38,116 bases of DNA from a virus. Taxonomy: Duplodnaviria > Heunggongvirae > Uroviricota > Caudoviricetes. Location of the stretch: the IMG/VR virus record IMGVR_UViG_2802429226_000004, positions 1-38,116 of that record; one strand, written 5' to 3'. The notes beneath the pieces are model-generated. The model saw nothing but the letters and a program-made list of their open reading frames with translations. It had not been told where the DNA came from and made no database searches. Shown piece after piece: positions 3,819 to 38,116 of the stretch. How positions within the stretch are numbered: position 1 is the first letter of the stretch; each line of letters opens with the position of its first letter. Made by a program: the position numbers and the translations under genes.

Positions 3819-3827
3819 TTTTTCTCC

Positions 3828-5178: not shown

Positions 5179-5196
5179 AACTTGTTACCTCGGTCT

Positions 5197-5275: not shown

Positions 5276-5284
5276 CTATCTGGC

Positions 5285-5309
5285 AATAAAAAAGCCGCCA
5301 TGAGGCGGC
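5285..5309 (-). terminator. rho-independent terminator downstream of the repressor gene
   Basis: GCCGCC-ATGA-GGCGGC hairpin; on the minus strand it is followed by a T-run (plus strand AATAAAAAA precedes it). Confidence 0.6.
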
Positions 5310-5331
5310 TTACTTACTGAAAACTATAGTT

Positions 5332-5916
5332 TTATTGTTTGCTTTTTTCGTTCTGGTTGATGACAAATTCAATGTAACTTTCGATCTTTGCTTTCTCGGT
5401 TTCGGGTAACAATGCGTAGCGTGAGCGGTCATAGTTGATAGTCGCAGGGTCGTGCGGGTGAATCAGTAGTTCATATCCGTGACGCCCGAATGCGGATGCA
5501 ACATTCTCCAGGGTGGAAATGGAAACGCTGACCTCATTGTTTAACAGGCGGCTGATTGTCACCTGGGCGACGCCGGATGCGCGGTGAAGTTTTCCCTGTG
5601 TTGAAAGGTCGCGGCTTTCGCTCATCCAGCGTTCCAGGTTGTGAGCCGCCAGCTGACCTATATCGCTCGGGCCGACAGGCTGAAAACCCTCCTGAGAAAG
5701 CGAACGATCAATATCAAGCCAGTTACGGGGTTTATTGGCGGCAGCTTCAATTTTTCGTGCAACCTGGTCGCCGATAACCTTCTTGCCAAGAGCCCAGCGG
5801 TTTACCAGATTTGCCTGAGTTCCAAGTTTTTCTGCCATCCGCGTCTGAACACCATTGAATTCACGGTCGATCAAGTCGTTGAGATTTTGCCTGCGGACGT
5901 CCTGGATACTTTTCAT
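5332..5916 (-). CDS. phage repressor (CI functional analogue) with two XRE-type HTH regions and no S24 peptidase domain
   Basis: 194 aa; N-terminal ...QTRMAEKLGTQANLVNRWALGKK... and a second ...SGVAQVTISRLLNNEVSVSISTLENVASAFG... HTH-like segment; divergent from a Cro-like gene across an operator-rich intergenic region. Confidence 0.75.
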   Translation of the reverse strand: MKSIQDVRRQNLNDLIDREFNGVQTRMAEKLGTQANLVNRWALGKKVIGDQVARKIEAAANKPRNWLDIDRSLSQEGFQPVGPSDIGQLAAHNLERWMSESRDLSTQGKLHRASGVAQVTISRLLNNEVSVSISTLENVASAFGRHGYELLIHPHDPATINYDRSRYALLPETEKAKIESYIEFVINQNEKSKQ

Positions 5917-5970
5917 TTTCTGGAAAATCGCCTCATATATGAATCAGTAGATGATTCAATTTAAAGCAAT

Positions 5971-6035
5971 ATTACCCAACAGGTAAATGCACCTCATAGG
6001 TAACTATCCTTGATTTTTGTTACCTTATGGGTGAA
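5971..6035. promoter_or_regulatory. OR-like operator/promoter region between repressor and Cro-like gene (three 17-bp sites)
   Basis: ATTACCCAACAGGTAAA (5971-5987), TGCACCTCATAGGTAAC (5988-6004), GTTACCTTATGGGTGAA (6019-6035); TTGATT-N17-GAATAT promoter-like element overlaps the third site and faces the Cro-like gene. Confidence 0.5.
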
Positions 6036-6070
6036 TATTTATTATCTGAAATAAATATCAGGCAATAGCT

Positions 6071-6301
6071 ATGAGCGATAACGGACATTTCGATTTCAAA
6101 AAGCACTGGCTTGCACTTACTCCGGATGAGCGTGAAGCCTTCGCACAGGAAGCCGGAACGACGAGTCACTATATCCAGACTCACTTAACAGGTAAGCGCA
6201 AAATGCCAGGTAAAGTATTGATGAATGGGCTTTTTAAAGCCTGTAAAACAAGACAATGGCTGCGCTCAAAAGCAGAACTGGCATACTTCTTCTACTCATG
6301 A
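6071..6301 (+). CDS. Cro-like / YdaS-like small HTH regulator
   Basis: 76-aa ORF divergent from the repressor and followed by a terminator; LTPDEREAFAQEAGTTSHYIQTHLTGKR looks HTH-like. Confidence 0.55.
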   Translation: MSDNGHFDFKKHWLALTPDEREAFAQEAGTTSHYIQTHLTGKRKMPGKVLMNGLFKACKTRQWLRSKAELAYFFYS

Positions 6302-6322
6302 TATCCAGCCACAACCCTCTGT

Positions 6323-6348
6323 AGACCGCCATCCGGCGGTCTTTTCAT
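6323..6348 (+). terminator. rho-independent terminator after the Cro-like gene (tR1-like position)
   Basis: AGACCGCC-ATCC-GGCGGTCT hairpin followed by TTTTCAT. Confidence 0.6.
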
Positions 6349-6449
6349 ATCTATTCGCACCTTAAAGGTAATAAAAAACCAAATCTGGTTGATCAAATTT
6401 TCCAATTGTGCAAAATAGCCAATATCAATAACAAAAAGGGGCGGAAAAA

Positions 6450-6662
6450 TTGAAGATAGTAACCAGAATGGAGGCCGCAAAAGCCGGGTTAAATCGCTAT
6501 TTCACAGGAAAGCGGTGCCGTCACGGCCATCTCTCTGAAAGGTATGTTCTGAACGGAACATGTGTTGAATGTGCAATGAATAGCGCCAACCGCCATCGTA
6601 ATGAATTTGCTTGTGCACTAAAGAGTGCAAGAGGGGAAACCTATGGCAAGCAGCTGGATTAA
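6450..6662 (+). CDS. small zinc-ribbon protein (CII position); TTG start inferred
   Basis: 70 aa with C..H...C..C cluster (RCRHGH...CVECAM); AAGGGG 8 nt upstream of TTG at 6450. Confidence 0.4.
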   Translation: MKIVTRMEAAKAGLNRYFTGKRCRHGHLSERYVLNGTCVECAMNSANRHRNEFACALKSARGETYGKQLD

Positions 6663-7473
6663 GGTTGAAGTTATCACTCCTGATAAACCTGAAATTTTTC
6701 AGATAGCAGAAATTCTGGGTATTGATCCAGATGCTGTTCTTGGAAAGCTGGTTCGTATATGGGCATGGGCTGACCAGCAAACAATAGACGGTAACGCTGG
6801 CAGCGTTACAAAAGGAGTACTTGATAGACTCGCTTTTATTACAGGATTTGCTGACGCCCTCATTAGCGTCGGATGGCTTGCTTATCATGACGGCAAACTA
6901 ATTCTTCCAAACTTTGAGCGACACAATGGAGAATCATCGAAAAAACGTGCACTTACGAATAGAAGAGTGGCAGAGCATCGAAAACGAGTAACGCAAAAAG
7001 TAACGCCAACAGCGTTACAAAAGGAGTTACCAGAGGAAGAGGAAGAGGAAGATATATATAAAACCCCACACATAGCGCACGTGCGCGAGGGTGCTCCGAC
7101 CAGTGAAGCGAACAGTACGCCGTTGCAGGTGGCAGAACCTGAATTTCTGGATGGCCTGAGTGAACCCATCGGGAAATTTCCGATGACAGATGGCTGGCTA
7201 CCGTCGCCAGATTTTCGGCGGCGTGCTGCGCTGTGGGGAACGGCCCTGCCGGAACCGGAATTTACACCTGCTGAACTTGCTGCATTCCGGGATTACTGGA
7301 TGGCTGAGGGCAAAGTGTTCACGCAGGTTCAGTGGGAACAAAAATTCGCCAGGCACGTAAATCATATCAGGGGAAAATCAAAAAATGCCGGGAAAAGCGA
7401 TGAGCTTGACTGGAATAACACTGACTGGATAGAAGGGGTGTGGGATGAAATCAACTCCAGAACTTCTCAATGA
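6643..7473 (+). CDS. replication initiation protein (lambda O functional analogue), contains the putative origin
   Basis: ATG at 6643 with GAGGGGA RBS; position directly upstream of a P-like gene; internal iteron-like DNA repeats and a Glu-run linker. Confidence 0.6.
   Translation: MASSWIKVEVITPDKPEIFQIAEILGIDPDAVLGKLVRIWAWADQQTIDGNAGSVTKGVLDRLAFITGFADALISVGWLAYHDGKLILPNFERHNGESSKKRALTNRRVAEHRKRVTQKVTPTALQKELPEEEEEEDIYKTPHIAHVREGAPTSEANSTPLQVAEPEFLDGLSEPIGKFPMTDGWLPSPDFRRRAALWGTALPEPEFTPAELAAFRDYWMAEGKVFTQVQWEQKFARHVNHIRGKSKNAGKSDELDWNNTDWIEGVWDEINSRTSQ
6790..7063. repeat. putative replication origin: iteron-like repeats plus AT-rich tract inside the O-like gene
   Basis: 18-bp direct repeat CAGCGTTACAAAAGGAGT at 6802-6819 and 7010-7027, read in different codon frames; GTAACGC at 6792, 6988 and 7000; GAGGAA x3; then GATATATATAAAA at 7051-7063. 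Confidence 0.4.
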
Positions 7474-8247: not shown

Positions 8248-8292
8248 CGTCTCAACAATTACCTATCAGGTAATAAAATATTCTAAACTCTA

Positions 8293-8682
8293 TTGATTTC
8301 GTGTCTTATGTGGTTTTTAATTACCTTAGAGGTAAATCATGAGAAAACAGATACAGGCTCTTGGTCGACTCAAAACAGGCCAGATGAACAAAACAGAATC
8401 TGCGTATTGCCAGCACCTTGGCTGCGTAAACGTGCAGGGGAAATCGCCTGGTATCGATTCGAGGGTATCAAGCTGCGGTTAGCTAATAACACGTTCTATA
8501 CGCCAGATTTCGCTGTGATGCTCGCCACCGGCGAGATGGAACTGCACGAAGTGAAAGGTTTCTGGACCGACGACGCCAGGGTGAAAACCAAAGTCGCCGC
8601 AGATCAGTATCCGTTCCGAATCATCGGGGTAACGGTTAAGCCAAAGAAAGCAGGTGGTGGCTGGAACATCGAAGAGTTCTGA
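8293..8682 (+). CDS. DUF1064-like phage protein; probable true start at ATG 8339 in a different frame (apparent frameshift)
   Basis: C-terminal LRKRAGEIAWYRFEGIKLRLANNTFYTPDFAVMLATGEMELHEVKG is DUF1064-like; the GAGG-ATG at 8339 opens MRKQIQALGRLKTGQMNKTESAY in the +1 frame relative to the rest of the gene. Confidence 0.5.
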   Translation: MISCLMWFLITLEVNHEKTDTGSWSTQNRPDEQNRICVLPAPWLRKRAGEIAWYRFEGIKLRLANNTFYTPDFAVMLATGEMELHEVKGFWTDDARVKTKVAADQYPFRIIGVTVKPKKAGGGWNIEEF

Positions 8683-14934: not shown

Positions 14935-15011
14935 TGGCGTGGCATGCAGGATTCGAACCTGCGACCAACCGCTTAGAAGGCGGTTGCTCTGTCCAGCTGA
15001 GCTAATGCCAC
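14935..15011 (-). tRNA. tRNA-Arg (anticodon UCU)
   Basis: Hand-folded 77-nt cloverleaf on the minus strand: acceptor GUGGCAU/AUGCCAC, D-arm GCUC/GAGC, anticodon stem ACCGC/GCGGU with loop CUUCUAA, T-arm GCAGG-UUCGAAU-CCUGC, discriminator G and encoded CCA. Confidence 0.85.
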
Positions 15012-15332: not shown

Positions 15333-15411
15333 CTTACCTGAAAGGTAATAATTAGTGCGTTAAATGTCAAGTATCTACGATAAATAAATCACATGTGGTT
15401 AAATTGGTAAT
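15333..15411 (+). promoter_or_regulatory. late-operon control region: operator-like 17-mer plus ACATGTGGTT-N5-GGTAAT element upstream of the portal operon
   Basis: CTTACCTGAAAGGTAAT at 15333-15349; ACATGTGGTT at 15391-15400; GGTAATAAT at 15406-15414. Confidence 0.4.
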
Positions 15412-21145: not shown

Positions 21146-23616
21146 TGGCTATCAGTTGGATCCAGCCCAGCTTTGCTGGTGGTGAGATTGGACCGTCGTT
21201 GTACGGACGTATCGACATGGCGAAGTACCAGGTGGCATTGCGCAAGTGCGATAACTTTATCGTGCGGCAGTATGGCGGCGTTGAGAATCGACCTGGTACG
21301 CATTTTGTCGGTGCCGCCAAATACCCAAATCGGAAATGCCGCCTGATCCCGTTCCAGTTCTCGACGGTTCAGACTTATGCTCTGGAGTTCGGACACCAGT
21401 ACATGCGCGTTATCAAAGATGGTGCGTTGGTGCTGAACAGCAGCAATGTTATTTATGAAATTGCCACGCCATATACTGAAGCCGATCTGTTCAGAATTAA
21501 ATTCACGCAAAGCGCAGACGTGCTTACGCTGGTTCATCCGGCATACCCGCCGAAAGAGTTGCGCCGCTATGCGCATGACAACTGGCAACTGGTTGATGTG
21601 GTAACGAAGAACGGGCCATTTGAAGATATCAATATTGACGAGTCAGTGACGGTTTATGCCAGCGCCAGCACCGGGACAATTACGTTAACGGCAAGCGCCT
21701 CTATTTTTGGCGCGGAGCAGGTAGGCAAATTGTTCTATCTGGAACAGCCAGCAGTGGATTCAGTACCGGTATGGGAAACCAGTAAGAGTACGTCGATTGG
21801 CGATATTCGCCGTGCAGACAGTAACTACTATCGCGCCGTTACAGCAGGCAAAACAGGCACTTTGCGCCCTTCGCATACAGAAGGCACATCATGGGATGGC
21901 TGGGGCGGCTCCGGTGATGATGATACTGGCATTGAGTGGGAGTATCTGCACAGTGGTTTTGGCATTGCCCGTATAACTGCTGTAAATGGCACTACTGCAA
22001 CTGCTGAGGTGATTTCCTATATCCCTTCGCAGGTCGTTGGCGAGGATAATGCCAGCTATAAATGGGCTAAATATGCCTGGAACAGTGTTAATGGTTATCC
22101 TGGCACTGTTGTTTATTATCAACAGCGTCTTTACTTCGCCGCATCGACTGCGTTCCCTCAGACTATCTGGGCCAGCCGTACTGGGGATTATAAGGATTTT
22201 GGCAAAAGCAATCCTACGCAGGATGACGATAGAATTATCTACACCTATGCCGGGCGTCAGGTTAATGAGATCCGCCACCTGATTGATGTTGGTTCGCTGG
22301 TGGCGCTGACTTCCGGAGGTGAGTACGTCATCACCGGCGACCAGAACAAAGTGTTAACCCCATCATCATTTGCATTCAGCTCTCAGGGATCAAATGGCTC
22401 AAGCAACGTCCCACCAATTGCCGTGGCGAATATTGCTCTGTTCGTCCAGGAGAAAGGCAGTGTTGTCCGTGATCTGGCCTATTCATTCGATGTTGACGGC
22501 TATCAGGGGAACGACCTTACTATCCTTGCCAATCATCTTTTTCAGAAGCACAGCATTGTTGACTGGTGCTTCTCGATTGTCCCTTACTCCAGTGCCTTCT
22601 GCATTCGTGATGACGGTAAATTACTGGTGATGACCTATTTGCGTGATCAGCAGGTTTTTGCATGGGCACCACAATCCAGTACCGGAAAATATGAAAGCAC
22701 ATGCAGTATCAGCGAAGGCAATGAAGATGCGGTGTATTTCGTCGTTAACAGAACCGTTAACGGGCAAACAGTGAGATACATCGAGAGACTGTCCAGCCGT
22801 TTATTTACCAGCGATGAAGATGCTTTCTTTGTTGATTCTGGCCTTAGCTATGATGGAAGAAATACGTCTGACAGAACGATGACCATCACTGGTGGTTCTG
22901 GTGAATGGGATTACCACGCGGAATATACAATCAGTGTTTCTGGTGGTGCGTACTTCACCAGTAGTGATGTTGGTGCGCAACTACAGTTCCCTTATACCGG
23001 AGCTGATCCTGATACTGGCGATGAAGTGTCAAAAGAATTACGTTGCGACATTATTTCTGTAACCAGCAATACCGCAGTAGTGGTTCGTGCTAACAGGAAC
23101 GTCCCGCCATCCCTCAGGAATGTGGCCACCACGAACTGGCAGATGGCGCGCCGGACATTTGGCGGCTTGTCTCATCTTGAAGGCCAGACCGTAAACATCC
23201 TCTCTGATGCGAACGTGGAACCACAAAAAGTGGTTTCCGGAGGTGCCGTCACGCTGGAATCACCGGGGGCTGTTGTGCACATCGGCCTGCCAATAACTGC
23301 TGAATTCGAAACACTGGATATCAACATTAACGGACAGGAAACGCTGCTGGACAAAAAACAGGTGATCCCGTCCGTTACTCTGGTTGTGAATGCCAGTCGC
23401 GGCATCTGGGCGACTACGCCCGGCGGTAAATGGTACGAATATCCACAGCGTGAATTCGAGTTCTACGATGATCCTGTTGATGATGCTACCGGAAAAGTAG
23501 AAGTGAAACTGGACAGTAACTGGGGCAAAAACGGGCGTGTAAAAATCCGTCAGCTTGACCCGTTGCCGCTGTCTGTTCTTGCCGTTATTCCTCGCCTTAC
23601 TGTTGGGGGATTCTGA
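21145..23616 (+). CDS. tail tubular protein B-like (nozzle) protein
   Basis: 823-aa ORF directly after the gp11-like gene, matching the conserved podovirus order gp11-gp12; assignment by size and synteny. Confidence 0.55.
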   Translation: MAISWIQPSFAGGEIGPSLYGRIDMAKYQVALRKCDNFIVRQYGGVENRPGTHFVGAAKYPNRKCRLIPFQFSTVQTYALEFGHQYMRVIKDGALVLNSSNVIYEIATPYTEADLFRIKFTQSADVLTLVHPAYPPKELRRYAHDNWQLVDVVTKNGPFEDINIDESVTVYASASTGTITLTASASIFGAEQVGKLFYLEQPAVDSVPVWETSKSTSIGDIRRADSNYYRAVTAGKTGTLRPSHTEGTSWDGWGGSGDDDTGIEWEYLHSGFGIARITAVNGTTATAEVISYIPSQVVGEDNASYKWAKYAWNSVNGYPGTVVYYQQRLYFAASTAFPQTIWASRTGDYKDFGKSNPTQDDDRIIYTYAGRQVNEIRHLIDVGSLVALTSGGEYVITGDQNKVLTPSSFAFSSQGSNGSSNVPPIAVANIALFVQEKGSVVRDLAYSFDVDGYQGNDLTILANHLFQKHSIVDWCFSIVPYSSAFCIRDDGKLLVMTYLRDQQVFAWAPQSSTGKYESTCSISEGNEDAVYFVVNRTVNGQTVRYIERLSSRLFTSDEDAFFVDSGLSYDGRNTSDRTMTITGGSGEWDYHAEYTISVSGGAYFTSSDVGAQLQFPYTGADPDTGDEVSKELRCDIISVTSNTAVVVRANRNVPPSLRNVATTNWQMARRTFGGLSHLEGQTVNILSDANVEPQKVVSGGAVTLESPGAVVHIGLPITAEFETLDININGQETLLDKKQVIPSVTLVVNASRGIWATTPGGKWYEYPQREFEFYDDPVDDATGKVEVKLDSNWGKNGRVKIRQLDPLPLSVLAVIPRLTVGGF

Positions 23617-27138: not shown

Positions 27139-28937
27139 GTTACTTTGGCCTTAATCCAGTAAACCAGAATCAGCAGCTTGACGAAGCAGCATCAAATCCA
27201 GTTGGCTTTAACAGCGATGTTGGTTTTTTCGACAATGCTGTAGGAGCGGCATTGTCTGGTTTGTACTCCGGGCTGGTGGCAAAGCCAGATCAGTTGCTAT
27301 GGGCAGGGATGGATAAAATCGTATCCCCGATTGCTCAGCTTGTTAACGAAAACACCTCGCTCAATGACACTTCAGTTTCATACATTGCTGAGCAGAGAAA
27401 ACTAGCAGAGCAGCAGGTTAAGCGGCTGACGCCTGATGCCGCGACAACCGGAACCGCCGGGCAGGTCCTTTATGGGTTGTTCGATATGGGCGGGCAGGCT
27501 GTTGTCGGTACAACGCTCGGTGGTCCGGTCGGAGGTGCTGCGGCGGTAACTTCTCTACAGGGTTTTTCTGAGTTTGAACGGTTGACAGCACAGGGTGTTG
27601 ATTTCAGGACGGCGCAGGAAGCGGGATTAGTGCAGGGTATTACTGCTGGTGCCGGAACACTGATCCCTATGAGCCTCGGGTTACGTGCTGGTGGTGCGCT
27701 GGCGGAAGGTGTGGCGGCTCAGCTTGCGCGGACGGGTGAAAGTTCAGTGCGACGCGCCGCAGCAACAGCAGTACGTGCAACGCCAGATATTGCCTATGCC
27801 GCAGGTACAAATATTGCGTTCGGTATGGCACAGCGTGGGCTTACTGCAAAAACGCTTCGTGATGGTGGCTATAGCGAAATGGCTAACCAGTATGATGTGT
27901 TGGATCGACAGGCAATTGCTATTGATGCTGTTCTTGGGGTGGCGTTTGGTGGTGTCGGCAGATTTATTAACTCTCGCGGCGAGTCTACAAGCGCACCAAA
28001 TTTTTCACCAGTTGATATTGATGCTGCACTGGCGGCGAATGCCGCTCATCATGCTGAAATTGATATTGCTCCCGGCGTTCCGATCAACGTGCTTTCGCGT
28101 AATTCGCACATTCAGGCTCTGCGAAAAGCCATGTCTGATGTTAGCCAGGGGAGACCTGTAGACGTTGCCAGCATTGTTGAGTCTGCATCTTTCAGTGAAA
28201 TTCCTGGGCGCAAGAGTCTGCTGTCTCAGGCAGTTAATGAGGCTCTGTCATCTGTAGATGATGGAGTAACGGCGCGCGCTATAGAAAATCGGTTGCTTGA
28301 AGAACAGGCCGCGCAGCTTTTGTCGCGTGGCGATAGAAAGGTTTACCAGTCTGAAATCGCTAATAGCCAACGAATTATTGAAAATCTCACTGAACAGCGC
28401 GCACAAATTCTTGCAGAAGAGCCAACCGGTAGCGGTAAGGCTTTATCTCGTGCTAGATCAGATAAACAGGCCAGACTTCGCGATATTGACCAACGAATCC
28501 GGCAGGCACAAGAACGCCTGGAATTTTCTCGTAACGCGTTGGCGCCGCACGAGCCTGGAGGTCAGTTTTTTGAAGCTCGAGCAGAACTGGCACGACGACA
28601 GCAGGCAGAAAGTGAACTTAATGCTCAGGCTGTTTCATTCTATAAAACAGCAGAGGTCAGGACGCCAGAAGAAGTAGCTCCTTTTGAGCCCGGTAAGATA
28701 TTGCAACAGACAGAACAAAAAATGATGGCAGATCCGGCAGGAGATATTGATCTGCGTATAGCTGAAGACTCGCTGCTTGAATCACCTGACATGATAATCA
28801 CCGTGCTGGATGATGATGGTAATCCACAATCGCGCAGTGCGCGTGAAGTACTGGATGAAGCGAACAGGGAAAGTGAGCAGGCAATACAGGATTCCAGCCT
28901 GTTTGATGTTGCTGTGGCGTGTTTCTTGAGAGGTTAA
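27135..28937 (+). CDS. internal virion / ejection protein
   Basis: 600 aa, Ala/Gly-rich with long helical C-half; ATGA overlap with the upstream gene. Confidence 0.6.
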   Translation: MSYFGLNPVNQNQQLDEAASNPVGFNSDVGFFDNAVGAALSGLYSGLVAKPDQLLWAGMDKIVSPIAQLVNENTSLNDTSVSYIAEQRKLAEQQVKRLTPDAATTGTAGQVLYGLFDMGGQAVVGTTLGGPVGGAAAVTSLQGFSEFERLTAQGVDFRTAQEAGLVQGITAGAGTLIPMSLGLRAGGALAEGVAAQLARTGESSVRRAAATAVRATPDIAYAAGTNIAFGMAQRGLTAKTLRDGGYSEMANQYDVLDRQAIAIDAVLGVAFGGVGRFINSRGESTSAPNFSPVDIDAALAANAAHHAEIDIAPGVPINVLSRNSHIQALRKAMSDVSQGRPVDVASIVESASFSEIPGRKSLLSQAVNEALSSVDDGVTARAIENRLLEEQAAQLLSRGDRKVYQSEIANSQRIIENLTEQRAQILAEEPTGSGKALSRARSDKQARLRDIDQRIRQAQERLEFSRNALAPHEPGGQFFEARAELARRQQAESELNAQAVSFYKTAEVRTPEEVAPFEPGKILQQTEQKMMADPAGDIDLRIAEDSLLESPDMIITVLDDDGNPQSRSAREVLDEANRESEQAIQDSSLFDVAVACFLRG

Positions 28938-28942
28938 ATTAA

Positions 28943-31417
28943 ATGAGACAGGAATGTATACAAGCGGTCCAGCAGGCGGCGCAGCGCACGTTAACGGCGC
29001 GAGAAATACAGAACATTGAAGACCGCATTTATCGAAATATGCGCTCCATTGCTCGTGATGACCCGATGTCGTGGCGACAACTTTCCGAATCAGAGCGGCT
29101 GTATCGTGCAGCACAATTGGCATCTGAAGAATTACAGCGAGAAGCGGCATTAAAGAAACGTCGTGTGGCCCTCACTATAGCCGCACGTCAGAGATTGGAT
29201 AAATTTATCAATAGCTATCAAGGGGCTGATGGGAAACTTGGCGCTCTTAACCGTACTATTGCTTTTAATGCAGACGGTAAATCGAATTTCCTCTCTGTTG
29301 AATCCAGAACAAAAGCCACCCGTGATTATGCATTGAGTCAATTGCAGGAGGCATTCGAAGCAGTTGATCCTCGCTTTTTTGGTCTGTTTGAAGATGAAGC
29401 GGGCGTACGTGACCTGGTATATGAAATGCGGGGGCAAAATACTGGCAATGCTAAAGCAAGAAAAGGTGCTAAGGCGTGGAGAGAAGTGACAGAGCTACTG
29501 CGCCGCCGGTTTAATGATGCTGGTGGGGACATTGGCTATCTCGAAAACTGGGGGATCCCTCAACATCATTCTATGGAAAAGGTTGGGGCGGTATCAAAAG
29601 ATAAATGGGTTAGCGATGTTATAGGTAAGCTGGATCGCAAATATTATACCCGAGCCGATGGACAACTGATGAACGATGCCGAGTTGTCTGCATTTCTTGG
29701 AGAGGCTTATAACACGATCGCTACTGGTGGGCTGAATAAGCTTACTGATACCGGAATGCGAATTTCCGGCGCACGTGCTAACCGTGGTAATGCATCACGA
29801 CAGATACATTTCAAAGATGCAGATTCCTATCTGCAATATCAGCAACTTTATGGCGATCGCTCTCTATGGGAAATCATGGTCGGTCACCTGGAAGGTATCA
29901 GTAAAGATATTGCACTGGTGGAAACATATGGTCCAAACCCCGATCATGTTTTCCGCTCTCTTCTTGATCAGGTGAAGGCAGAAACGGCAACAGCTAACCC
30001 GAGTAAAACCGGTAAAGTCGAGCGGCTGGCGAACAACACAGAGAATCTGTACAACTTTATTTCCGGAAAGACACAGCCTGTAGCGAATCCGCACATCGCG
30101 CGATGGTCTGACAATATCCGCAACTGGCTGGTTGCCAGCAGACTCGGATCCGCGTTGCTGTCATCGTTCTCTGATCTTGGAACCATGTATCTGTCTGCGA
30201 AGGTTACCAACCTTCCAATGAACCAGTTATTCCGCAACCAGCTTGAAGCTATGGACCCAACGAACCGTACAGAACTTGCGCGGGCGCGCCGCGCTGGTCT
30301 GGCGATGGAATCTCTACTTGGCAGCGTTAACCGCTGGGCGATGGATAATATGGGGCCGTCTGTGTCTCGTTGGGCTGCAACGGCGGTAATGCGTGCCAGT
30401 GGGCTTACAGCATGGTCAGATGCGCACAAGCGCGCCTATGGCGTAACCATGATGGGAAGCCTGGGAGAAGTAGTGTCACGGACACCAGACCTTCGTCGCC
30501 TCGATGACTCTGATTTTCGTATCCTGAAAAGCAAAGGGATTACTGACACAGACTGGAGCGTATGGAAGTTGGCGCAACAGGAGGACTGGGGGAACGGTAA
30601 TAATACGATGCTGACACCGGAAAGCATTATGCGTATCCCTGATTCAGCAGTTAAACATCTTGGTGAGCCTGAACGCGTGAAATTTGAGGCAATGCGTAAA
30701 CTGCTCGGTGCCGTAACTGAAGAAGTTGATATGGCTGTTATTACACCGGGAGCACGTGAGCAACTGATAACCGGTTCTGGTATTCAGCGTGGAACATGGA
30801 AAGGTGAATTAACGAGAAGTGTTTTCCTGTTTAAATCGTTCCCTATCTCGGTTGTTATGCGTCACTGGTCACGCGCTATGGGTATGCCGTCTGCTGGTGG
30901 GCGTGCGGCATATATTGCGACGTTTATTGCCAGTACGACCATTCTTGGCGCTTTGTCGCAACAACTTAACGACCTTGCGTCTGGTCGTAATCCTCGAGAG
31001 ATGACAGGAGAAGATGCCGCAAAATTCTGGCTTGGTGCTCTACTGAAAGGTGGTGGTCTTGGCCTTTACGGTGACTTTTTATTGTCAGATCACACTAGGT
31101 ACGGAAGCGGCGCGCTGGCGTCGATGCTTGGCCCGGTAGCTGGTCTAGTTGATGACGTAGTGAAGATTGCTCAGGGCATACCGTTAAATGCTGTGGAAGG
31201 GAAGAGTGAGCAGACTGGTGGTGATCTGGTGAAGCTGGGGAAAGGTTTGATGCCTGGTGCGAATCTCTGGTACTTGAAGGCGGCTCTCGATCACATGATC
31301 TTTAACCAGATGCAGGAGTATTTTTCACCAGGCTATTTGCGTAAAATGGAGCAACGTTCGAAGAAAGAGTTTAACCAGACATACTGGTGGCGACCTCAGG
31401 ATGTCACTCCGCAATAA
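28943..31417 (+). CDS. large internal virion / ejection protein (gp16 position)
   Basis: 824-aa ORF, last of the large ejection-protein series before the tailspike region. Confidence 0.6.
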   Translation: MRQECIQAVQQAAQRTLTAREIQNIEDRIYRNMRSIARDDPMSWRQLSESERLYRAAQLASEELQREAALKKRRVALTIAARQRLDKFINSYQGADGKLGALNRTIAFNADGKSNFLSVESRTKATRDYALSQLQEAFEAVDPRFFGLFEDEAGVRDLVYEMRGQNTGNAKARKGAKAWREVTELLRRRFNDAGGDIGYLENWGIPQHHSMEKVGAVSKDKWVSDVIGKLDRKYYTRADGQLMNDAELSAFLGEAYNTIATGGLNKLTDTGMRISGARANRGNASRQIHFKDADSYLQYQQLYGDRSLWEIMVGHLEGISKDIALVETYGPNPDHVFRSLLDQVKAETATANPSKTGKVERLANNTENLYNFISGKTQPVANPHIARWSDNIRNWLVASRLGSALLSSFSDLGTMYLSAKVTNLPMNQLFRNQLEAMDPTNRTELARARRAGLAMESLLGSVNRWAMDNMGPSVSRWAATAVMRASGLTAWSDAHKRAYGVTMMGSLGEVVSRTPDLRRLDDSDFRILKSKGITDTDWSVWKLAQQEDWGNGNNTMLTPESIMRIPDSAVKHLGEPERVKFEAMRKLLGAVTEEVDMAVITPGAREQLITGSGIQRGTWKGELTRSVFLFKSFPISVVMRHWSRAMGMPSAGGRAAYIATFIASTTILGALSQQLNDLASGRNPREMTGEDAAKFWLGALLKGGGLGLYGDFLLSDHTRYGSGALASMLGPVAGLVDDVVKIAQGIPLNAVEGKSEQTGGDLVKLGKGLMPGANLWYLKAALDHMIFNQMQEYFSPGYLRKMEQRSKKEFNQTYWWRPQDVTPQ

Positions 31418-31426
31418 GGAAGTGTT

Positions 31427-31600
31427 GTGTTTTTAATTATTTTGAGTGTGATAATTTCTGGTGTATTGTTATTTATTGACCGCTACAAATATTTTCTTAA
31501 CCCTCAGACTCAAGCTATTTGCTGGTTCATCTTTGTTGTGCAGGGAGTAGTTCTTGTTGCAAGCCTTATTGAGGGGAGGCCTCTTATTTTTACTGGGTAA
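31427..31600 (+). CDS. small hydrophobic membrane peptide (57 aa, GTG start)
   Basis: Hand-translated VFLIILSVIISGVLLFIDRYKYFLNPQTQAICWFIFVVQGVVLVASLIEGRPLIFTG with two predicted TM segments; AAGGA 6 nt upstream; AT-rich; not in the ORF track. Confidence 0.4.
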   Translation: MFLIILSVIISGVLLFIDRYKYFLNPQTQAICWFIFVVQGVVLVASLIEGRPLIFTG

Positions 31601-31612
31601 ATAGGTGACTAC

Positions 31613-31909
31613 ATGCAAGCTATAGGATTCATTGTTTATATCGTCGTTGGTCTTTTTCAGTTGGCAGCAATTATGGCTGGGCTTGAATCATGGTGGGGAT
31701 TGCACTGGATAATTGCAGCCCCCATTGCTTTCATCGTGAGCTATATTCCATTTGTTGGAGCGATTGTTGGTATGGTTGGCGCTGTGGATGTATGGCGGTG
31801 GGAGTGGTGGCAGGCTGGCCTTCTCTTCTTTGGTGGGATCATCTTTGCTATTGTCTGCGGTGGAATGTCATCATTTTTCGAATGGCTATCATTCAGAAAA
31901 GGTACGTGA
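31613..31909 (+). CDS. small integral membrane protein (98 aa, Trp-rich)
   Basis: AGGTGA RBS; three hydrophobic segments (..IVYIVVGLFQLAAIMAGL.., ..IIAAPIAFIVSYIPFVGAIVGMVGAV.., ..LLFFGGIIFAIVCGG..); followed by palindrome and terminator. Confidence 0.55.
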   Translation: MQAIGFIVYIVVGLFQLAAIMAGLESWWGLHWIIAAPIAFIVSYIPFVGAIVGMVGAVDVWRWEWWQAGLLFFGGIIFAIVCGGMSSFFEWLSFRKGT

Positions 31910-31917
31910 CATGTCAC

Positions 31918-31944
31918 AGGCCGCTTTCGCGGCCTTTTCTTTAT
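31918..31944 (+). terminator. rho-independent terminator after the membrane protein genes
   Basis: AGGCCGC-TTTC-GCGGCCT hairpin followed by TTTCTTTAT. Confidence 0.65.
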
Positions 31945-32213
31945 GTGGTTTGTTTTCGTAATTGTTCGGCACAATAGTCGAGATGTGTTTGCAGATCCTG
32001 CATAGACATCTGTGAGCTGGTGACGTAGTTAATCAGTGCAGTCAGTTCGGCAAGTGGGCCATCGACATTAAATCCATCCTTATCGAGATCCCGGAGTAAT
32101 TTCATCAAGTGCGATCCCTCCACCAGTGACCTGACGCCTCCCGGCGTGTGAATCCTTTCGGTAAATCCGTCTTCCAGTGGATAGTGATACTGCTGCATCT
32201 TAATCTTCTCCAT
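31941..32213 (-). CDS. hypothetical protein (90 aa), reverse-strand moron
   Basis: Minus-strand ORF with its own upstream intergenic region; no family recognised. Confidence 0.5.
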   Translation of the reverse strand: MEKIKMQQYHYPLEDGFTERIHTPGGVRSLVEGSHLMKLLRDLDKDGFNVDGPLAELTALINYVTSSQMSMQDLQTHLDYCAEQLRKQTT

Positions 32214-32274
32214 GCAATAACTGTATATTTATACAGTAGCAAATAATTTGTTTGCTATCCAGCACGTTTTGCAA

Positions 32275-32341
32275 ATTACCTGAAAGGTAATATCTATTCA
32301 TATTCACAGTCTTTCTATCCATATGTGGTTTTTCAGGTAAT
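32275..32341 (+). promoter_or_regulatory. tailspike control region: operator-like 17-mer plus ATATGTGGTT-N5-GGTAAT element
   Basis: ATTACCTGAAAGGTAAT at 32275-32291; ATATGTGGTT at 32321-32330; GGTAAT at 32336-32341. Confidence 0.4.
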
Positions 32342-32394
32342 AGAATAACCAGATATGCGGCGCAACGGGTGCTGCGACTATCTGGAGATTTAAC

Positions 32395-34740
32395 ATGACG
32401 GTCTCAACCGAAGTTGACCACAACGAATACACCGGTAACGGCGTTACGACATCGTTTCCGTATACTTTTCGAATTTTCAGAAAATCAGACCTGGTTGTTC
32501 AGGTGTCTGACCTGAACGGGAACGTAACAGAATTGGTTCTGGATACCGGTTATACGGTAACTGGGGCGGGCACTTATAGTGGCGGTTCAGTGGTTCTGCC
32601 GTCTCCGCTTGCTGCTGGCTGGCGAATTACGATAGATCGTGTGCTTGATGTAGTGCAGGAGACAGATCTTCGCAATCAGGGAAAATTTTTCCCCGAAGTG
32701 CATGAAGATGCTTTGGACTACCTGACGATGCTGATCCAGCAATGTTTTGGGTGGTTCAGACGTGCATTGATGAAACCATCTTTGCTTGCAAAATATTACG
32801 ATGCAAAGCAAAACAGAATTTCTAACCTTGCAGATCCATCACTTGAGCAGGACGCTGTAAATAATCGCTCAATGCGTAATTATGTCGATGCTGCAATCGC
32901 CGGGGTTGTTGGTGGTTTTGGTTGGTTTATTCAGTATGGTTCTGGGGCAGTATACAGAACGTTCCAGGATAAAATGCGAGATAATTTTAGTGTTAAAGAT
33001 TTTGGGGCGAAAGGGGATGGGGTATATTCAGACTCTGATGCCATTAATGCCGCAGCATTAGCTGCTTTTAATAATGGTGGCGGGGGAATATTTTACCCTC
33101 CAGGTGTTTATTTAATAGATTCTCCTATCATTCTTTATACAGGCGTTCATCATAAAGGCTCTGGAAAGAGAGCAACATTTCTGTATGTTAAAAAAGGTAG
33201 TAATACAGATGTATTTAAAACACATGGCTTTGGCGTTGTGGAAAATCTGTCTGATGCGCCATATGGATTTAGCATAAAAGATATGACCATTGATGGTAAT
33301 TATCTTGACTTGCAAAGAGATACAAACTCATGGAGAACTTGCGACACTGTTAACAATGACTATGGAACTGCCATTAAAATATTCGGCAGCATGTACCACA
33401 TTGATGTTGAGATTAATAATGTTGCAGAACATGCTCTCTATTCAGAGGGGTATGGATCATTTCATGATAATCAGGAACACGCCTCTGAAGTGAGGATAAC
33501 GGGAAGAATTTCAGGGAGAGAGGGGGTTGTGTTCAGGGGGCCAGGTGATATTAACCTGGATTATATTGTTTTTGGCCTGTGTGGACTTCCTCCTTACAGC
33601 GCAAGATTAACAGCAACAAGCCAACAAAGCCTTCTTTATCCCGGAGAACCATGTCATGGAATTGTTCTTGATAATCAGTCTCCTTATACAGGACATGTCG
33701 ATATAAATTACATCCATGTATATGCCGTGTATTATGGCTATGGATTTAAGACGCTGGGTGTTAACCGATTCAATGCGAGGCACGTGTGTGTTGATAATAG
33801 TTTAGGTGGTTACTGGTTTACCAACGGGGCACATGGTGTTGTTGCCATCGCAGAAGCCAGGGCATGCGGAAGAATGCCAGATAACTACACTGGCGATTCA
33901 ATATCTCCTCTCCGCGACATGCTTCTGGATAACGGTACAATCTGGACACTTAACATCAATATAAAAGCACAAAGATATTCACCTTCAATTGATGATGATG
34001 GGTATCAGATAGCTATATCAGGCAACAACAATGTAGTTACAATAAACCAAATAGGTCAGTTACAGAGTGATAATACCCCTATTAAAGCCTCGTTTCTTTC
34101 TGTTACTGGTGACAATAACAATGTTACTTTTACATCCAAGAGGATAAAAGGAAATTTATGTTACTTATCTGGTGGCGGTAATAACATAAGAGGTACGTGT
34201 GATAATTTGTTCTCAGGTGCTGCTTTTATTCGCGACGCAACAAATTCAACAACAATTTGTTTTGCGAACAGTGTAGATATAACTGCGAAGGGGCTTTCTT
34301 CTGATTGTACTGGATTTAATAGTATTGGTACATGTGCATCAGAGAATATAAGGTTAATGATTTCTGGTGCTGTTGGATATACGAAGTTTACTGGCGATCG
34401 TATGGCTGCAATAAATCGAACTTGTGTTTGGATGGTAATGGCAACAATAGGAAATTCAATTAATGGTAAATCGACAGAGGATTATCTTGAGTGGGCTATG
34501 CCTACACCAACCGATGGTGATTTTCATGAGGTAGATATAGAACATAACTTCCTTTATGCTCCAACTTTAAATCAAATTTCATGGGCTTTCAGACAACCCG
34601 GTACTGAAGTTGTTGGTGCAACTATTGATTATATAAGACTCATTGGTGTTCCAACAGATACAACATTTAAAATCAGATATAAGTGGTCTGGTGCAGCCGC
34701 TTCTGGAAGCGCACCTATAGTAACGTTTCATATAAAATAA
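32395..34740 (+). CDS. tailspike protein with pectate-lyase-like beta-helix (probable polysaccharide depolymerase)
   Basis: 781 aa; N-terminal MTVSTEVDHNEYTGNGVTTSFPYTFRIF attachment domain; FSVKDFGAKGDGVYSDSDAINAAAL and repeated beta-helix-like segments; C-terminal two-thirds strongly AT-rich. Confidence 0.8.
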   Translation: MTVSTEVDHNEYTGNGVTTSFPYTFRIFRKSDLVVQVSDLNGNVTELVLDTGYTVTGAGTYSGGSVVLPSPLAAGWRITIDRVLDVVQETDLRNQGKFFPEVHEDALDYLTMLIQQCFGWFRRALMKPSLLAKYYDAKQNRISNLADPSLEQDAVNNRSMRNYVDAAIAGVVGGFGWFIQYGSGAVYRTFQDKMRDNFSVKDFGAKGDGVYSDSDAINAAALAAFNNGGGGIFYPPGVYLIDSPIILYTGVHHKGSGKRATFLYVKKGSNTDVFKTHGFGVVENLSDAPYGFSIKDMTIDGNYLDLQRDTNSWRTCDTVNNDYGTAIKIFGSMYHIDVEINNVAEHALYSEGYGSFHDNQEHASEVRITGRISGREGVVFRGPGDINLDYIVFGLCGLPPYSARLTATSQQSLLYPGEPCHGIVLDNQSPYTGHVDINYIHVYAVYYGYGFKTLGVNRFNARHVCVDNSLGGYWFTNGAHGVVAIAEARACGRMPDNYTGDSISPLRDMLLDNGTIWTLNINIKAQRYSPSIDDDGYQIAISGNNNVVTINQIGQLQSDNTPIKASFLSVTGDNNNVTFTSKRIKGNLCYLSGGGNNIRGTCDNLFSGAAFIRDATNSTTICFANSVDITAKGLSSDCTGFNSIGTCASENIRLMISGAVGYTKFTGDRMAAINRTCVWMVMATIGNSINGKSTEDYLEWAMPTPTDGDFHEVDIEHNFLYAPTLNQISWAFRQPGTEVVGATIDYIRLIGVPTDTTFKIRYKWSGAAASGSAPIVTFHIK

Positions 34741-34776
34741 ACAATTTATTAATTAGTTTTTAATTATATAGAAGGC

Positions 34777-34815
34777 ATCAGTCCCAATAAAATGGGGCTG
34801 ATTACTTTTCATTGT
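34777..34815 (+). terminator. putative rho-independent terminator after the tailspike gene
   Basis: CAGTCCC-AATAAAAT-GGGGCTG imperfect hairpin followed by a T-rich tract. Confidence 0.4.
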
Positions 34816-34957
34816 TTTCATAAAAAGGTAAAAAAATTAAATATTATTATTTGTTTGAACCTGGTTATAGAAGTAATTATTTTAAGGTAACATTAAACCT
34901 TATGTGGTTTGTTGTGTATGATAGTCTGTAAGTGAAGAGGTTCGATATGTACAGAAA

Positions 34958-35371
34958 ATGGTGTGTGCTATGTCAGTTCAAATAACATCAGAGTCTTTAA
35001 ATCAATGGCTTAGTGCTAGTTCTCTGGTTGCAGTGATAGCAGGAGTTCCTCCTGAGGTTGCTTTAGGTGCCTTAGCTGGTGCGGTAATCTTTGTTACCTC
35101 TGCTGTCGAGTATCCGATCCGCCGCCGAGTGCTCCTCTCTATGCTCAGCTTTCTTTGCGGCCTTCTCTTTTACAAACCTGCAGCATCAATTCTTATCGGA
35201 ATAGCCAGTCTGATCCCTACCATCACGAAGGAGTCTTTTGAGAAAGGGATTGTTTTCTCTGCTGGCGCATTCGTGTCAGCAATTGTCGCTGTGCGTATTG
35301 GTATATGGCTCTATCACCGTTCCGATAATCCACGCGAGTTAATTCCGGGGAGAAAAGGCGATGGTAACTAA
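34958..35371 (+). CDS. holin-like membrane protein (start uncertain; 34970 is an alternative)
   Basis: 137 aa with several hydrophobic helices; first gene of the cassette ending in endolysin and spanins. Confidence 0.5.
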   Translation: MVCAMSVQITSESLNQWLSASSLVAVIAGVPPEVALGALAGAVIFVTSAVEYPIRRRVLLSMLSFLCGLLFYKPAASILIGIASLIPTITKESFEKGIVFSAGAFVSAIVAVRIGIWLYHRSDNPRELIPGRKGDGN

Positions 35372-35669
35372 TGAGCTTGTTTTGCTTATCACCAATGCAC
35401 TTATTTGTACTGGCATAGCAATTCGTGTTGTCACATTCCGGCGTAACGGTTCACAACACCGAAGATGGGGAGGGTGGCTTGCTTATTTCCTTATTGTTGC
35501 TGCGGCCAGTATTCCTGTTCGTGTCGTCTATGCAATCTGGTTACGCACGCCAATGGCTGTGGATTTATCAGAGGTCATTATCAACGCTGTCATGCTTGCT
35601 GCGGTTCTTAAAACTCGCGGTAACGTCGTTCAGATTTTCAAAATAACGAGGTCTAAACATGGAGATTAA
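35361..35669 (+). CDS. second holin/antiholin-like membrane protein
   Basis: 102 aa, three hydrophobic segments, overlaps both neighbours; directly upstream of the endolysin gene. Confidence 0.5.
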
Positions 35670-36288
35670 ACAATTCCAGCGAGCTGCTGGTATTAGCGAT
35701 GCGCTGGCCGCACGCTGGTTCTCGCATATAACTTCTGCGATGAAAGAGTTTGGTATCAGCAAACCAGAAGATCAGGCAATGTTTATTGCTCAGGTCGGGC
35801 ATGAGTCTGGAGGCTTCACCCGGTTGCAGGAAAATTTCAACTACAGCGTCAGCGGACTGGCTAATTTCGTTCGGGCTGGGCGTCTCACTCAGGGACAGGC
35901 CAACGCATTGGGGCGCCGTGCTGGTGAACCACCATTGCCACTTGAGCGCCAGAGAGCGATCGCCAATCTGGTGTACAGCAAACGCATGGGTAACAATGCC
36001 CCAGGTGATGGCTGGAATTACCGTGGGCGCGGGCTTATCCAGATTACCGGTTTGAATAACTATCGTGACTGTGGAAACGGTCTGAAAGTTGACCTGCTGG
36101 ATAGTCCTGAACTGCTGGCGCAGGACGAATACGCGGCTCGTAGCGCGGCGTGGTTTTTTGCCAGCAAAGGCTGCATGAAGTATACCGGTGATATTGCACG
36201 TGTAACTCTGATTATCAATGGTGGCCGGAACGGCATCGACGACCGGCGCGCGCGGTACGTTACTGCCAGTAAGGTGCTGGTCGTATGA
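35659..36288 (+). CDS. endolysin, glycoside hydrolase family 19 (chitinase-like) type
   Basis: 209 aa; ...[12 protein letters not shown]... and ...[16 protein letters not shown]... match GH19-type phage endolysin signatures as recalled. Confidence 0.85.
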
Positions 36289-36767
36289 TCTGGGCATTCG
36301 TAAAAGCATACTGGAAACAGTTGATTATCATGGCGGTGCTTGCTGTTCTGGTCATATCAGGAGTTGTTGCCTGGAATGTGCACGGCAGTCGTCAGTACGA
36401 CGCCGGGTATGCACAGGCGAAAGAAGACCGCAAAACCGAAGATGAGAGAGTTCGTCAGCACTACGAACAGGAGAAATCGATCAATGAACGTGAAGCGCAG
36501 CAGAGGATCGACCAGGCGCGCAATGATGCTCTTGATGCTGCCGCTCGCGCTGGCCGGTTGCAGCAACAGCTCGTTGCCATCCGTGAGCAGCTCAGGCAGT
36601 ATAACGCCATTGTCGGCGCTGGGACGTCAGCCGCAGACACCGGAGTTTTGCTTGCCGACGTGCTCAGTAAATCTCTCGAGAGAAACAGACAACTGGCAGA
36701 GTATGCTGACCGGGCAGCCGAAGCCGGAAGAGTCTGTGAAAAACAGTACGACACCCTGACCAGATAG
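36285..36767 (+). CDS. i-spanin (Rz-like)
   Basis: 160 aa; N-terminal TM helix ([18 protein letters not shown]) followed by charged coiled-coil periplasmic domain; ATGA overlap with the endolysin gene. Confidence 0.7.
36484..36759 (+). CDS. o-spanin (Rz1-like lipoprotein) embedded in the +1 frame of the i-spanin gene
   Basis: 91 aa from ATG 36484: [26 protein letters not shown], a lipoprotein signal with LAGC lipobox, then Ser/Pro-rich mature region; AGGAG 10 nt upstream. Confidence 0.6.
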   Translation: MNVKRSRGSTRRAMMLLMLPLALAGCSNSSLPSVSSSGSITPLSALGRQPQTPEFCLPTCSVNLSRETDNWQSMLTGQPKPEESVKNSTTP

Positions 36768-36877
36768 CATGGCATTTTTCATGGTACTGATTTCCGGTGA
36801 CGGTATATAAAACGGTACGAGGAAAATTGAGCTTTGGAAAAACGTTATCACTCAATTGGTTATGGTGCCAGTAAATA

Positions 36878-36892
36878 ATTGAGTGGGAATAA
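36878..36892 (+). other. putative attR core / guaA 3'-end remnant (ATT GAG TGG GAA TAA = IEWE-stop)
   Basis: ATTGAGTGGGAATAA read in frame gives IEWE-stop, which I recall as the C-terminus of GMP synthase GuaA; phage genes end just left, host-like genes and a terminator lie to the right. Confidence 0.35.
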
Positions 36893-36953
36893 ACCCGAAC
36901 ACTAAATGCTGAGGTTTGCTATTCGTACGAGGCTTCAGCATATTTTGGTAACA

Positions 36954-36987
36954 AAACCCTCTGTTCATCCACTGGAGGGTTTTTTAT
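36954..36987 (+). terminator. rho-independent terminator (host-side, possibly the gua operon terminator)
   Basis: CCCTC-N13-GAGGG hairpin followed by TTTTTTAT. Confidence 0.55.
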
Positions 36988-37042
36988 GCAATTAAAAAGC
37001 CCATAATCCTCACGAATTACAGGCCTGGTAGTGGAAAGACGA

Positions 37043-37585
37043 TTAATTAAACCAACTGTCTGATTTATTCTCTTCTGCTTTACCCACGCTTTTCATCAAA
37101 TCACGACCACCTTCAGTCATATTCCTGTTAGCGTCAGCTTCAGATTGTACAACATCGGTTTGCGCTGCTTTGTGTTTCAGTTCCTGATCGATAAATTCGT
37201 TCTCACGCTTAACGCGCGCTTCTTCTTTTGCCAGCGCCAGTTTTTGCTTCTGAATCTCTAAGTTGCGCAGCTCATCTTCATAACTTTGATCGCGCTTTTT
37301 ATCCGCAGTGAATTCGGCGTCCCGTTTATCCTGGCGAGCTTTTTTATCCGCTGCTGCTGCTGCCGCTCTTTTATTCGCTGCGGCCTGAGCGTTTGCGCGC
37401 CGTTGCTTCTCTTGCTGGATTTCCCTGTTGCGCTCCGCAACCCATTCGTCATGCTGCCTTTGTTCTTCATTTTTGCCTTGCTGTTCAGCTTCTGCGACCG
37501 CAGAGAGTTGATCCTGTAATGAAGAGGCGAAAGCCGGGCTACTAACAGCAGCTAATATGGCGGCGCAAAGAAAAACTTTCTTCAT
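37043..37585 (-). CDS. secreted coiled-coil periplasmic protein, host-like (possibly YfgI-like)
   Basis: 180 aa; signal peptide MKKVFLCAAILAAVSSPAFA; highly charged Lys/Glu/Ala/Gln-rich helical body; GGAGGA RBS. Confidence 0.55.
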   Translation of the reverse strand: MKKVFLCAAILAAVSSPAFASSLQDQLSAVAEAEQQGKNEEQRQHDEWVAERNREIQQEKQRRANAQAAANKRAAAAAADKKARQDKRDAEFTADKKRDQSYEDELRNLEIQKQKLALAKEEARVKRENEFIDQELKHKAAQTDVVQSEADANRNMTEGGRDLMKSVGKAEENKSDSWFN

Positions 37586-37600
37586 GAGTCCTCCTGATAG

Positions 37601-38116
37601 TTAGCTCTTTTCAGGACATTTTGTATTTGGCTGAATACGCGTTTCGTTATAAGTGGTGGTAATAACAACGGCTAAACCCGTTGTGAACTGGCATTCTTTA
37701 CCCACCTGGGTGGAGGTGTACACTTTGGTGCCTTCCTTATAAGTTAAAGAGACACCTTCCACTAAGGTTTTATCATTCACCATAGTACCCGCTGCCGCGC
37801 CTACAGCTCCGCCACCAACTGCACCAGCCGTTGTTCCGGAGTTACTACCAGATCCAACGTTATGGCCGATAACGCCGCCTGCGACAGCGCCAATAAGTGC
37901 GCCAAAGGCTTGCGCATTCCGTTTATTTTGTGAGTTATCTACGGCAACTTTTGCGGGAAGAATGGAGATAATATTAACGGTTTTAGTTTCTTGCTTTGTA
38001 TTCAGTTGATCGGTTTGATAGACATCGGCGGCATGGTCGTCAGCATTTGACTGGCATCCTGCCAGGGTGAATGACGCTAAAATTGCCACAGGCAGAAAAC
38101 ATTTTTTAAATTTCAT
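37601..38116 (-). CDS. glycine-zipper outer-membrane lipoprotein, host-like (possibly YfgH-like); start codon at window edge
   Basis: 171 aa; lipoprotein signal with LAGC lipobox; Gly-zipper GALIGAVAGGVIGHNVGSG...GAVGGGAVGAAAG. Confidence 0.55.
   Translation of the reverse strand: MKFKKCFLPVAILASFTLAGCQSNADDHAADVYQTDQLNTKQETKTVNIISILPAKVAVDNSQNKRNAQAFGALIGAVAGGVIGHNVGSGSNSGTTAGAVGGGAVGAAAGTMVNDKTLVEGVSLTYKEGTKVYTSTQVGKECQFTTGLAVVITTTYNETRIQPNTKCPEKS

Follow-up and report, generated by a model that had tools for sequence, protein, structure and literature searches.

The right end of a phiV10/epsilon15-type prophage in Escherichia marmotae: an attR junction at the 3' end of guaA

A stretch of caudoviricete DNA that opens on an integrase gene and closes on genes of bacterial type raises the question of where the phage ends, where the host begins and which chromosomal site has been occupied. 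We addressed it for the IMG/VR record IMGVR_UViG_2802429226_000004, whose 38,116 nucleotides (hereafter the window) were analysed in full. The initial annotation had placed a prophage right boundary at the guaA 3' end, with phage genes stopping at 36767, and had taken 36878-36892 to encode I-E-W-E-stop, the C-terminus of GuaA. Our results indicate that the region 36768-37040 is almost certainly the attR junction of a 37.1-kb prophage of the phiV10/epsilon15 type (Uetakevirus), site-specifically integrated in the last codons of guaA of Escherichia marmotae, and no finding speaks against this. Integration at this gene is already well documented and the present case is an ordinary instance of it, not a new kind of feature, so that beyond correct annotation it has little importance.

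The sequence that first suggested guaA is the 15-mer ATTGAGTGGGAATAA, whose sole exact copy in the window lies on the plus strand at 36878-36892 and reads I-E-W-E-stop, as in the C-terminus of E. coli GuaA (...GKPPATIEWE). Its reading frame has only five open codons (ATA ATT GAG TGG GAA TAA), with a TAA before them, and the segment is therefore a detached end of guaA and not a gene. Allowing up to two mismatches, two matches are present in the window against 0.06 expected by chance; a two-mismatch copy at 21931-21945 lies inside a structural gene and was rejected as a secondary att site, being a coincidental coding match. All free phage genomes likewise contain the first 13 bases of the 15-mer, which are thus not assignable to either host or phage. 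This would agree with a chance match or a purely phage-borne sequence, the true prophage boundary being elsewhere.

Chromosomes with an unoccupied site are decisive on this point. In a BLAST search with 36768-37042, six empty E. marmotae loci (L010-L014 and L017) match from 36878 rightward with 98.8-99.4% identity and show no match to the window left of that base, and the match of the free phage genomes (phiV10 and relatives) ends at 36890. These two limits fix the exact prophage boundary, with phage DNA up to 36877, a shared core at 36878-36890 and host DNA from 36891 onwards. The empty sites, in which guaA ends ...GCCGCCAGCTACT ATTGAGTGGGAATAA ACCCGAAC... and yfgI is convergent with it, and the occupied sites (L015 and L016) all carry the exact YfgI protein of the window. 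Host identity that begins exactly at 36878 in six empty sites, the host-type AAAC at 36891-36894 where attP has GATT, and the low chance expectation, which already allows two mismatches, leave the chance or phage-borne explanation with practically no probability, and the empty-site sequences refute it. Both the boundary at the guaA 3' end and the assignment of the 15-mer to the GuaA C-terminus are therefore upheld, the latter also by the E. coli protein. Six independent marmotae-type attR junctions with differing phage arms all read GTAAATA-ATTGAGTGGGAAT-AAACC in an alignment of nine attR/attP arms (alignment A1). Within IMG/VR, a scan for the marmotae-type guaA end plus core gave no match, and a degenerate guaA-end pattern retrieved 28 loci, none from a marmotae-type host. 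In one unrelated IMG/VR contig (3300032132_000708, L089) the guaA end ATTGAGTGGGAATAGGT is followed by two more tandem TGAATGGGAATAGGT copies; these could reflect either several rounds of integration and excision or tandem elements that occupied one site.

As the window begins at the GTG codon of the integrase, attL lies outside it. Its sequence comes from another contig assembled from the same run (L098; Logan assembly SRR3987708, contig 9), which shows no mismatches to window positions 1-7096 and extends further left. Two other contigs, L099 (PTSS01000002.1) and L100 (SRR3987708 contig 7), show no mismatches to 28395-38116, and attL and attR therefore belong to the same isolate. L098 carries guaB-guaA with 99.9% identity to E. 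marmotae CP072689, and its guaA, full length (525 aa) and thus kept intact, stands directly upstream of int and ends ...GCTACT ATTGAGTGGGAATGATT AACAGCTAAC..., followed by the P arm and then by int. The arm to the right of the attL core differs from the P arm of phiV10 by only a few SNPs. An attL and an intact guaA just left of the window had been anticipated, together with the recovery of a guaA ending in the core before the integrase upon leftward extension; both were found in L098, where the attL core starts 207 nt upstream of the integrase GTG, base 1 of the window. The proposed core of 36878-36892 was right in so far as it is present at the left junction, but the exact direct repeat covers 13 bp (36878-36890) and not 15.

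The junction positions, the attB, attL and attR sequences (Table 1) and the homology to phages with proven attP sites are direct observations, and the four att sites are those of a clean reciprocal exchange within 13 bp. The published core is the 17-bp ATTGAGTGGGAATGATT, situated in phiV10 and epsilon15 between the Rz gene and int. For phage ZX5, attgagtgggaatgatt was identified as attP and as attB at the guaA 3' end and confirmed by PCR and Sanger sequencing in a study that also cites the proof of the same core for phiV10 and epsilon15 (PMC9782041), and TL-2011b is likewise reported to be inserted in guaA (PMC3293862). The initial statement that epsilon15 and phiV10 integrate at the guaA 3' end is in agreement with PMC9782041 and with the attP records. 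The E. marmotae attB matches the first 13 bases of the published core contiguously and differs at positions 14, 16 and 17; because it reads ...AATAAAC, the direct repeat at the two prophage ends is exact over 13 bp and the canonical 17 bp are incomplete, attL ending TGA-TT and attR TAA-AC. In E. coli lysogens the attL/attR repeat is the full 17-bp ATTGAGTGGGAATGATT, since the E. coli attB itself ends TGATT.

The same likeness of attL and attR over all 17 bp in E. coli lysogens could be taken to mean that GATT in attL and AAAC in attR differ here through mutation of a canonical 17-bp attB after integration, and not through prior divergence of attB. This is extremely improbable and is refuted by the empty sites: the uninfected E. 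marmotae attB is already ...GAATAAACC, six of six marmotae-type attR junctions with different phage arms read AAACC, and attL is identical to the phage attP. An attB that had diverged before integration is thus the preferred reading, and it narrows the crossover region of the published 17-bp core to 13 bp. Excision would regenerate attB …GAATAAACC and attP …GAATGATTAAC.

Table 1. Positions of the prophage, junction and host features in the window, with the four att sequences (core between hyphens)
Feature	Position	Strand	Sequence or evidence
attB			gctact - ATTGAGTGGGAAT - aaaccc
attP (phiV10)			gtaaata - ATTGAGTGGGAAT - gattaac
attL			gctact - ATTGAGTGGGAAT - gattaac
attR (window)			gtaaata - ATTGAGTGGGAAT - aaaccc
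Tyrosine integrase, P4-like, 416 aa, GTG start, arm-binding N-terminal domain	1-1251	+	Pfam
AlpA-family HTH protein, 82 aa	2498-2746	-	Pfam Phage_AlpA, 24.2 bits against a cut-off of 21
TTACC-N5-GGTAA copies	5198-5212, 5260-5274, 5972-5986, 8259-8273, 8321-8335, 15334-15348, 32276-32290		All in intergenic gaps
Last phage gene, Rz-like i-spanin (DUF2514)	36285-36767	+	Pfam E=2.9e-43
Embedded Rz1 lipoprotein ORF	36484-36759	+	+1 frame, lipobox LALAGC; phiV10 annotated likewise
P' arm of attR (phage DNA)	36768-36877	+	Alignment A1, 9 arms
Common core ATTGAGTGGGAAT, 13 bp, exact direct repeat with attL	36878-36890	+	Empty sites and phage genomes
Displaced original guaA 3' end (I-E-W-E-TAA)	36878-36892	+	Cut off from its gene by the prophage
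Host guaA-yfgI intergenic spacer	36891-37042		99.4% identity to empty sites
Hairpin with 12-bp stem in spacer	36906-36941		RNA folding
Original guaA terminator and U6	36953-36984	+	RNA folding, z = -2.7
Terminator-like hairpin behind yfgI	37026-36997	-	Consensus scan
Host gene yfgI (DUF5384)	37043-37585	-	Pfam E=4.8e-60; exact protein beside guaA in E. marmotae
Host gene yfgH (glycine-zipper outer-membrane lipoprotein)	37601-38116	-	RefSeq, syntenic E. coli locus

The integrase that the window encodes has all the domains expected of such an enzyme, an N-terminal arm-binding domain (PF13356 Arm-DNA-bind_3, E=3.9e-20), a central core-binding domain (PF22022 Phage_int_M, E=5.3e-12) and a C-terminal catalytic domain (PF00589 Phage_integrase, E=1.4e-19), a direct observation from Pfam. 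In all probability it recombined the phage attP ATTGAGTGGGAATGATT, flanked by the P' and P arms, with the host attB guaA...ATTGAGTGGGAATAAAC, strand exchange taking place inside the 13 bp common to both. The host attB matches the core over ATTGAGTGGGAAT only and the six attR junctions keep AAAC, which places both strand exchanges within these 13 bp. Their identity is symmetric (ATT-GAGTGGG-AAT), a pattern that would suit an overlap of 7 bp with inverted core-site ends on either side, the most likely overlap being GAGTGGG (36881-36887) between ATT and AAT. The resulting attR consists of the phage P' arm and the core, followed by AAAC of the host type, by the original terminator of guaA and by yfgI, and the resulting attL of an intact guaA with a phage-supplied end, its stop changed from TAA to TGA, and a phage-borne terminator after it.

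The exact overlap, like the arm-type Int sites and the IHF sites, is predicted from sequence symmetry, conservation and the annotations of related records. Within the P' arm the block 36786-36817 is invariant in the nine aligned arms and holds GTGACGGTAT (36797-36806) and a second ACGGTA, and GTAAATA is invariant directly left of the core. In the P arm GTGACGGTAT recurs, together with the inverted ATACCGTC. In the epsilon15 record GTGACGGTAT is marked as a binding site of the integrase, and IHF sites are marked adjacent to the core; the conserved motifs of the P' arm are probable arm-type Int sites and IHF sites. A literature search found no mapped cleavage positions or binding sites for the phiV10/epsilon15 guaA system. 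Two more copies of this putative arm-site 10-mer, GTGACGGTAT, are found within the integrase coding sequence (170-179 and 260-269), both encoding R-D-G-I. They may be functional or a coincidence of coding; the corresponding positions in epsilon15 carry an integrase-binding annotation.

The TAA stop of the host guaA gives way at attL to the TGA of the phage, with no change to the GuaA protein. The gene is followed there by the phage-borne terminator AACCCTCTGTTTTTACAGAGGGTTTTT, located about 60-90 nt right of the attL core in L098 (reverse strand), which shares 25 of 27 bases with the E. coli guaA terminator (L001, 2675-2701 compared with 42657-42683). The phage end carries both the last codons and a terminator and thus restores both for guaA. 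The likeness of the P-arm terminator suggests that the attP region descends from captured host DNA downstream of guaA.

The original 3' region of E. marmotae guaA was left behind at attR, disconnected from the gene, with its 36906-36941 hairpin and its terminator. The fold confirms the terminator that had been called at 36954-36987, with limits of 36953-36984 and a U6 tract. A consensus terminator scan made no call on the plus strand at this position because of a bulge in the stem; with an A-run alongside, the element is plausibly bidirectional. The hairpin is present in all E. marmotae loci examined; window base 36918, the first loop position, is G where the other marmotae loci have T. A search for it in 5,426 complete E. 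coli genomes gave no match, so that it is not a dispersed repeat there, and a search of 36500-37300 against Rfam returned sub-threshold chance matches only, with no RNA family for the spacer hairpins. If the hairpin has indeed been lost from the guaA transcript, mRNA stability could be altered or a 3'-UTR-derived RNA removed. The full proposal, that the exchanges occur within 13 bp with GAGTGGG as overlap, that a right core site with only four of seven bases matching is tolerated, and that lysogeny rewrites the stop codon, 3' UTR and terminator of guaA and so detaches the 36906-36941 hairpin, is put forward tentatively, as somewhat less probable than its negation.

Right of the spacer, the two genes that had been described as convergent and host-like are indeed host genes, yfgI and yfgH, convergent with guaA and the prophage but not with each other. 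In none of 5,419 complete E. coli genomes does the host flank have a match above 89% identity. Of the loci with the exact YfgI protein, the occupied L016 (CP173213) is E. marmotae F12YCO47 (PMC12017327) and PMC12826111 cites the empty L012 (CP072689) as E. marmotae. The host species is Escherichia marmotae rather than E. coli or Salmonella, and phiV10-type phages thus lysogenise E. marmotae at the same locus as in those two hosts. An exact 37-mer over the core and the host flank had no match in the GTDB species-representative genomes; the E. marmotae representative evidently differs from it by at least one base.

The identity of the element rests on both its nucleotide sequence and its gene content. 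Over its first 25 kb and its final 12 kb the window shows 96-98% identity to HEMP4, vB_EcoP_ZX5, phiv142-3, TL-2011b and phiV10; for epsilon15 the value is about 76% in the structural genes. Pfam assigned a helix-turn-helix repressor, a T7-type portal, an epsilon15 GP7 capsid protein, a T7_gp14 internal virion protein, a pectate-lyase-type tailspike and a GH19 endolysin to the prophage proteins. With nucleotide similarity and gene order as in phiV10 and epsilon15, the element belongs with Uetakevirus. These data substantiate the epsilon15/phiV10-like nature recognised by the initial annotation and the organisation that it had described (P4-type integrase, lambdoid switch, T7-like portal and ejection proteins, tailspike and a lysis cassette at the far end), and the DUF2514 spanin gene does end the phage genes at 36767 as stated. 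A search of NCBIfam yielded no useful assignment for Rz, YfgI or the holins.

From core to core the prophage measures 37,084 bp, about 2 kb less than phiV10 (39.1 kb), and the 218-nt gap between the tailspike gene and the holin gene leaves oac, the O-antigen acetyltransferase gene that phiV10 has there, absent; a gene for serotype conversion is not evident at that position, ahead of the lysis genes. The smaller size and the missing O-antigen-modifying gene would be compatible with a decayed, immobile relic whose attR is a non-functional fossil. We consider this unlikely, given that an open reading frame remains for every gene to be expected (those of the integrase, AlpA, the repressor, replication, the terminase, the portal, the capsid, the internal virion proteins, the tailspike and the lysis cassette), that identity to plaque-forming phages is 96-98%, and that the two att sites are intact, as are the invariant blocks of the arms. 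The prophage is probably still active, and its 82-aa AlpA-family protein is a candidate excisionase (recombination directionality factor).

With phiV10, epsilon15 and ZX5, whose integrases are reported to be 98% identical to one another, the prophage has in common the integrase, both arms (P' and P), a core that precedes int by about 190-207 nt, insertion at the guaA 3' end, between that gene and yfgI, and the organisation of its genome. It differs from that system in its E. marmotae host, in the 13-bp repeat and in the change of the guaA stop from TAA to TGA, and also in having a tailspike allele seen in this isolate only and no oac-type gene beside the lysis cassette. Its exact integrase protein is found in many E. 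coli lysogens, and in eight of eight E. coli loci it lies 192 nt downstream of guaA. As in the lambda and P4 Int proteins, arm-binding N-terminal and catalytic domains are combined with conserved repeated motifs in the P and P' arms, an IHF-type architecture is annotated in epsilon15, and a phage-borne gene end keeps the target intact; the target, however, is the end of a protein-coding gene, whereas P4 uses a tRNA gene and lambda an intergenic site.

We also examined 47 relatives of the integrase from species-representative genomes, among which the guaA-linked ones fall within L023-L061. With the exception of L048, every relative with at least 47% identity and upstream DNA follows a guaA ending ATYGAGTGGGA(A/G)T at a distance of 195-364 nt; in L048 upstream DNA is present and contains no guaA. 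Most of the guaA copies are full length, L041 and L051 having the 3' end only, and integrase homologues are found just after a complete guaA that ends in GAGTGGGA. With identities of 47-91%, the relatives are distributed over Enterobacterales, Aeromonadales, Neisseriales, Burkholderiales, Rhodocyclales and Caulobacterales, in Alpha-, Beta- and Gammaproteobacteria whose hosts range from Citrobacter and Klebsiella through Chromobacterium, Rhodocyclaceae and Cupriavidus to Caulobacter. The linkage to guaA across these orders makes targeting of the guaA 3' end an old, conserved property of this integrase clade.

Another member of the clade is the integrase of the resistance island GIsul2, which inserts at the guaA 3' end with the 8-bp site GAGTGGGA (PMC9376610). 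The GIsul2 integrase of Acinetobacter pAB3, also present on IncC plasmids, has 54% identity to that of the window over 95% of its length and heads an int-alpA-rep-trb-ars-CR2-sul2 element. The two systems have in common a homologous tyrosine integrase, an AlpA-family gene near int and the target motif in the last codons of guaA. In contrast to the prophage, GIsul2 is not a phage but a mobilisable island of 15 kb that carries resistance genes (rep, trb, ars, CR2-sul2); it duplicates a site of only 8 bp and also inserts at secondary plasmid sites. The GIsul2 target GAGTGGGA lends independent support to GAGTGGG as the overlap. The identity and the shared target link the phage integrase to that of the resistance island; together with the E. 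marmotae host and the 13-bp repeat with its TAA-to-TGA swap, this link is all that is added to the published system, and the two gains, the narrowing to 13 bp and the connection to GIsul2, are modest.

Other features of the prophage were observed along the way. A tRNA-Arg gene with anticodon TCT lies at 14935-15011 on the minus strand, between the terminase and portal modules, and is also present in the related E. coli prophage of L001 and in O157 typing phages. The palindrome TTACC-N5-GGTAA, with at most one mismatch, occurs seven times in the window against 0.1 expected, on both sides of the repressor gene, after replication gene P, before the portal operon and before the tailspike gene, and an imperfect eighth copy, TTACCTTAAAGGTAT, is found in the P arm upstream of int (L098). 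From their placement these palindromes look like operator or regulator sites for every transcription unit, perhaps also for int. The tailspike, of 781 aa and pectate-lyase fold (32395-34958), is an allele seen, in a large gene collection, in this isolate only (SRR3987708 contig 7 and GCA_002965295.1 contig PTSS01000002.1). Likewise, the MT-A70 adenine methyltransferase allele at 1446-2096 on the minus strand occurs in two contigs only of a 153-billion-gene collection, both from this isolate, and the adjoining integrase is identical in more than 1,400 blocks of the collection; the presence of a rare allele beside so common an integrase points to mosaic evolution of the early region.
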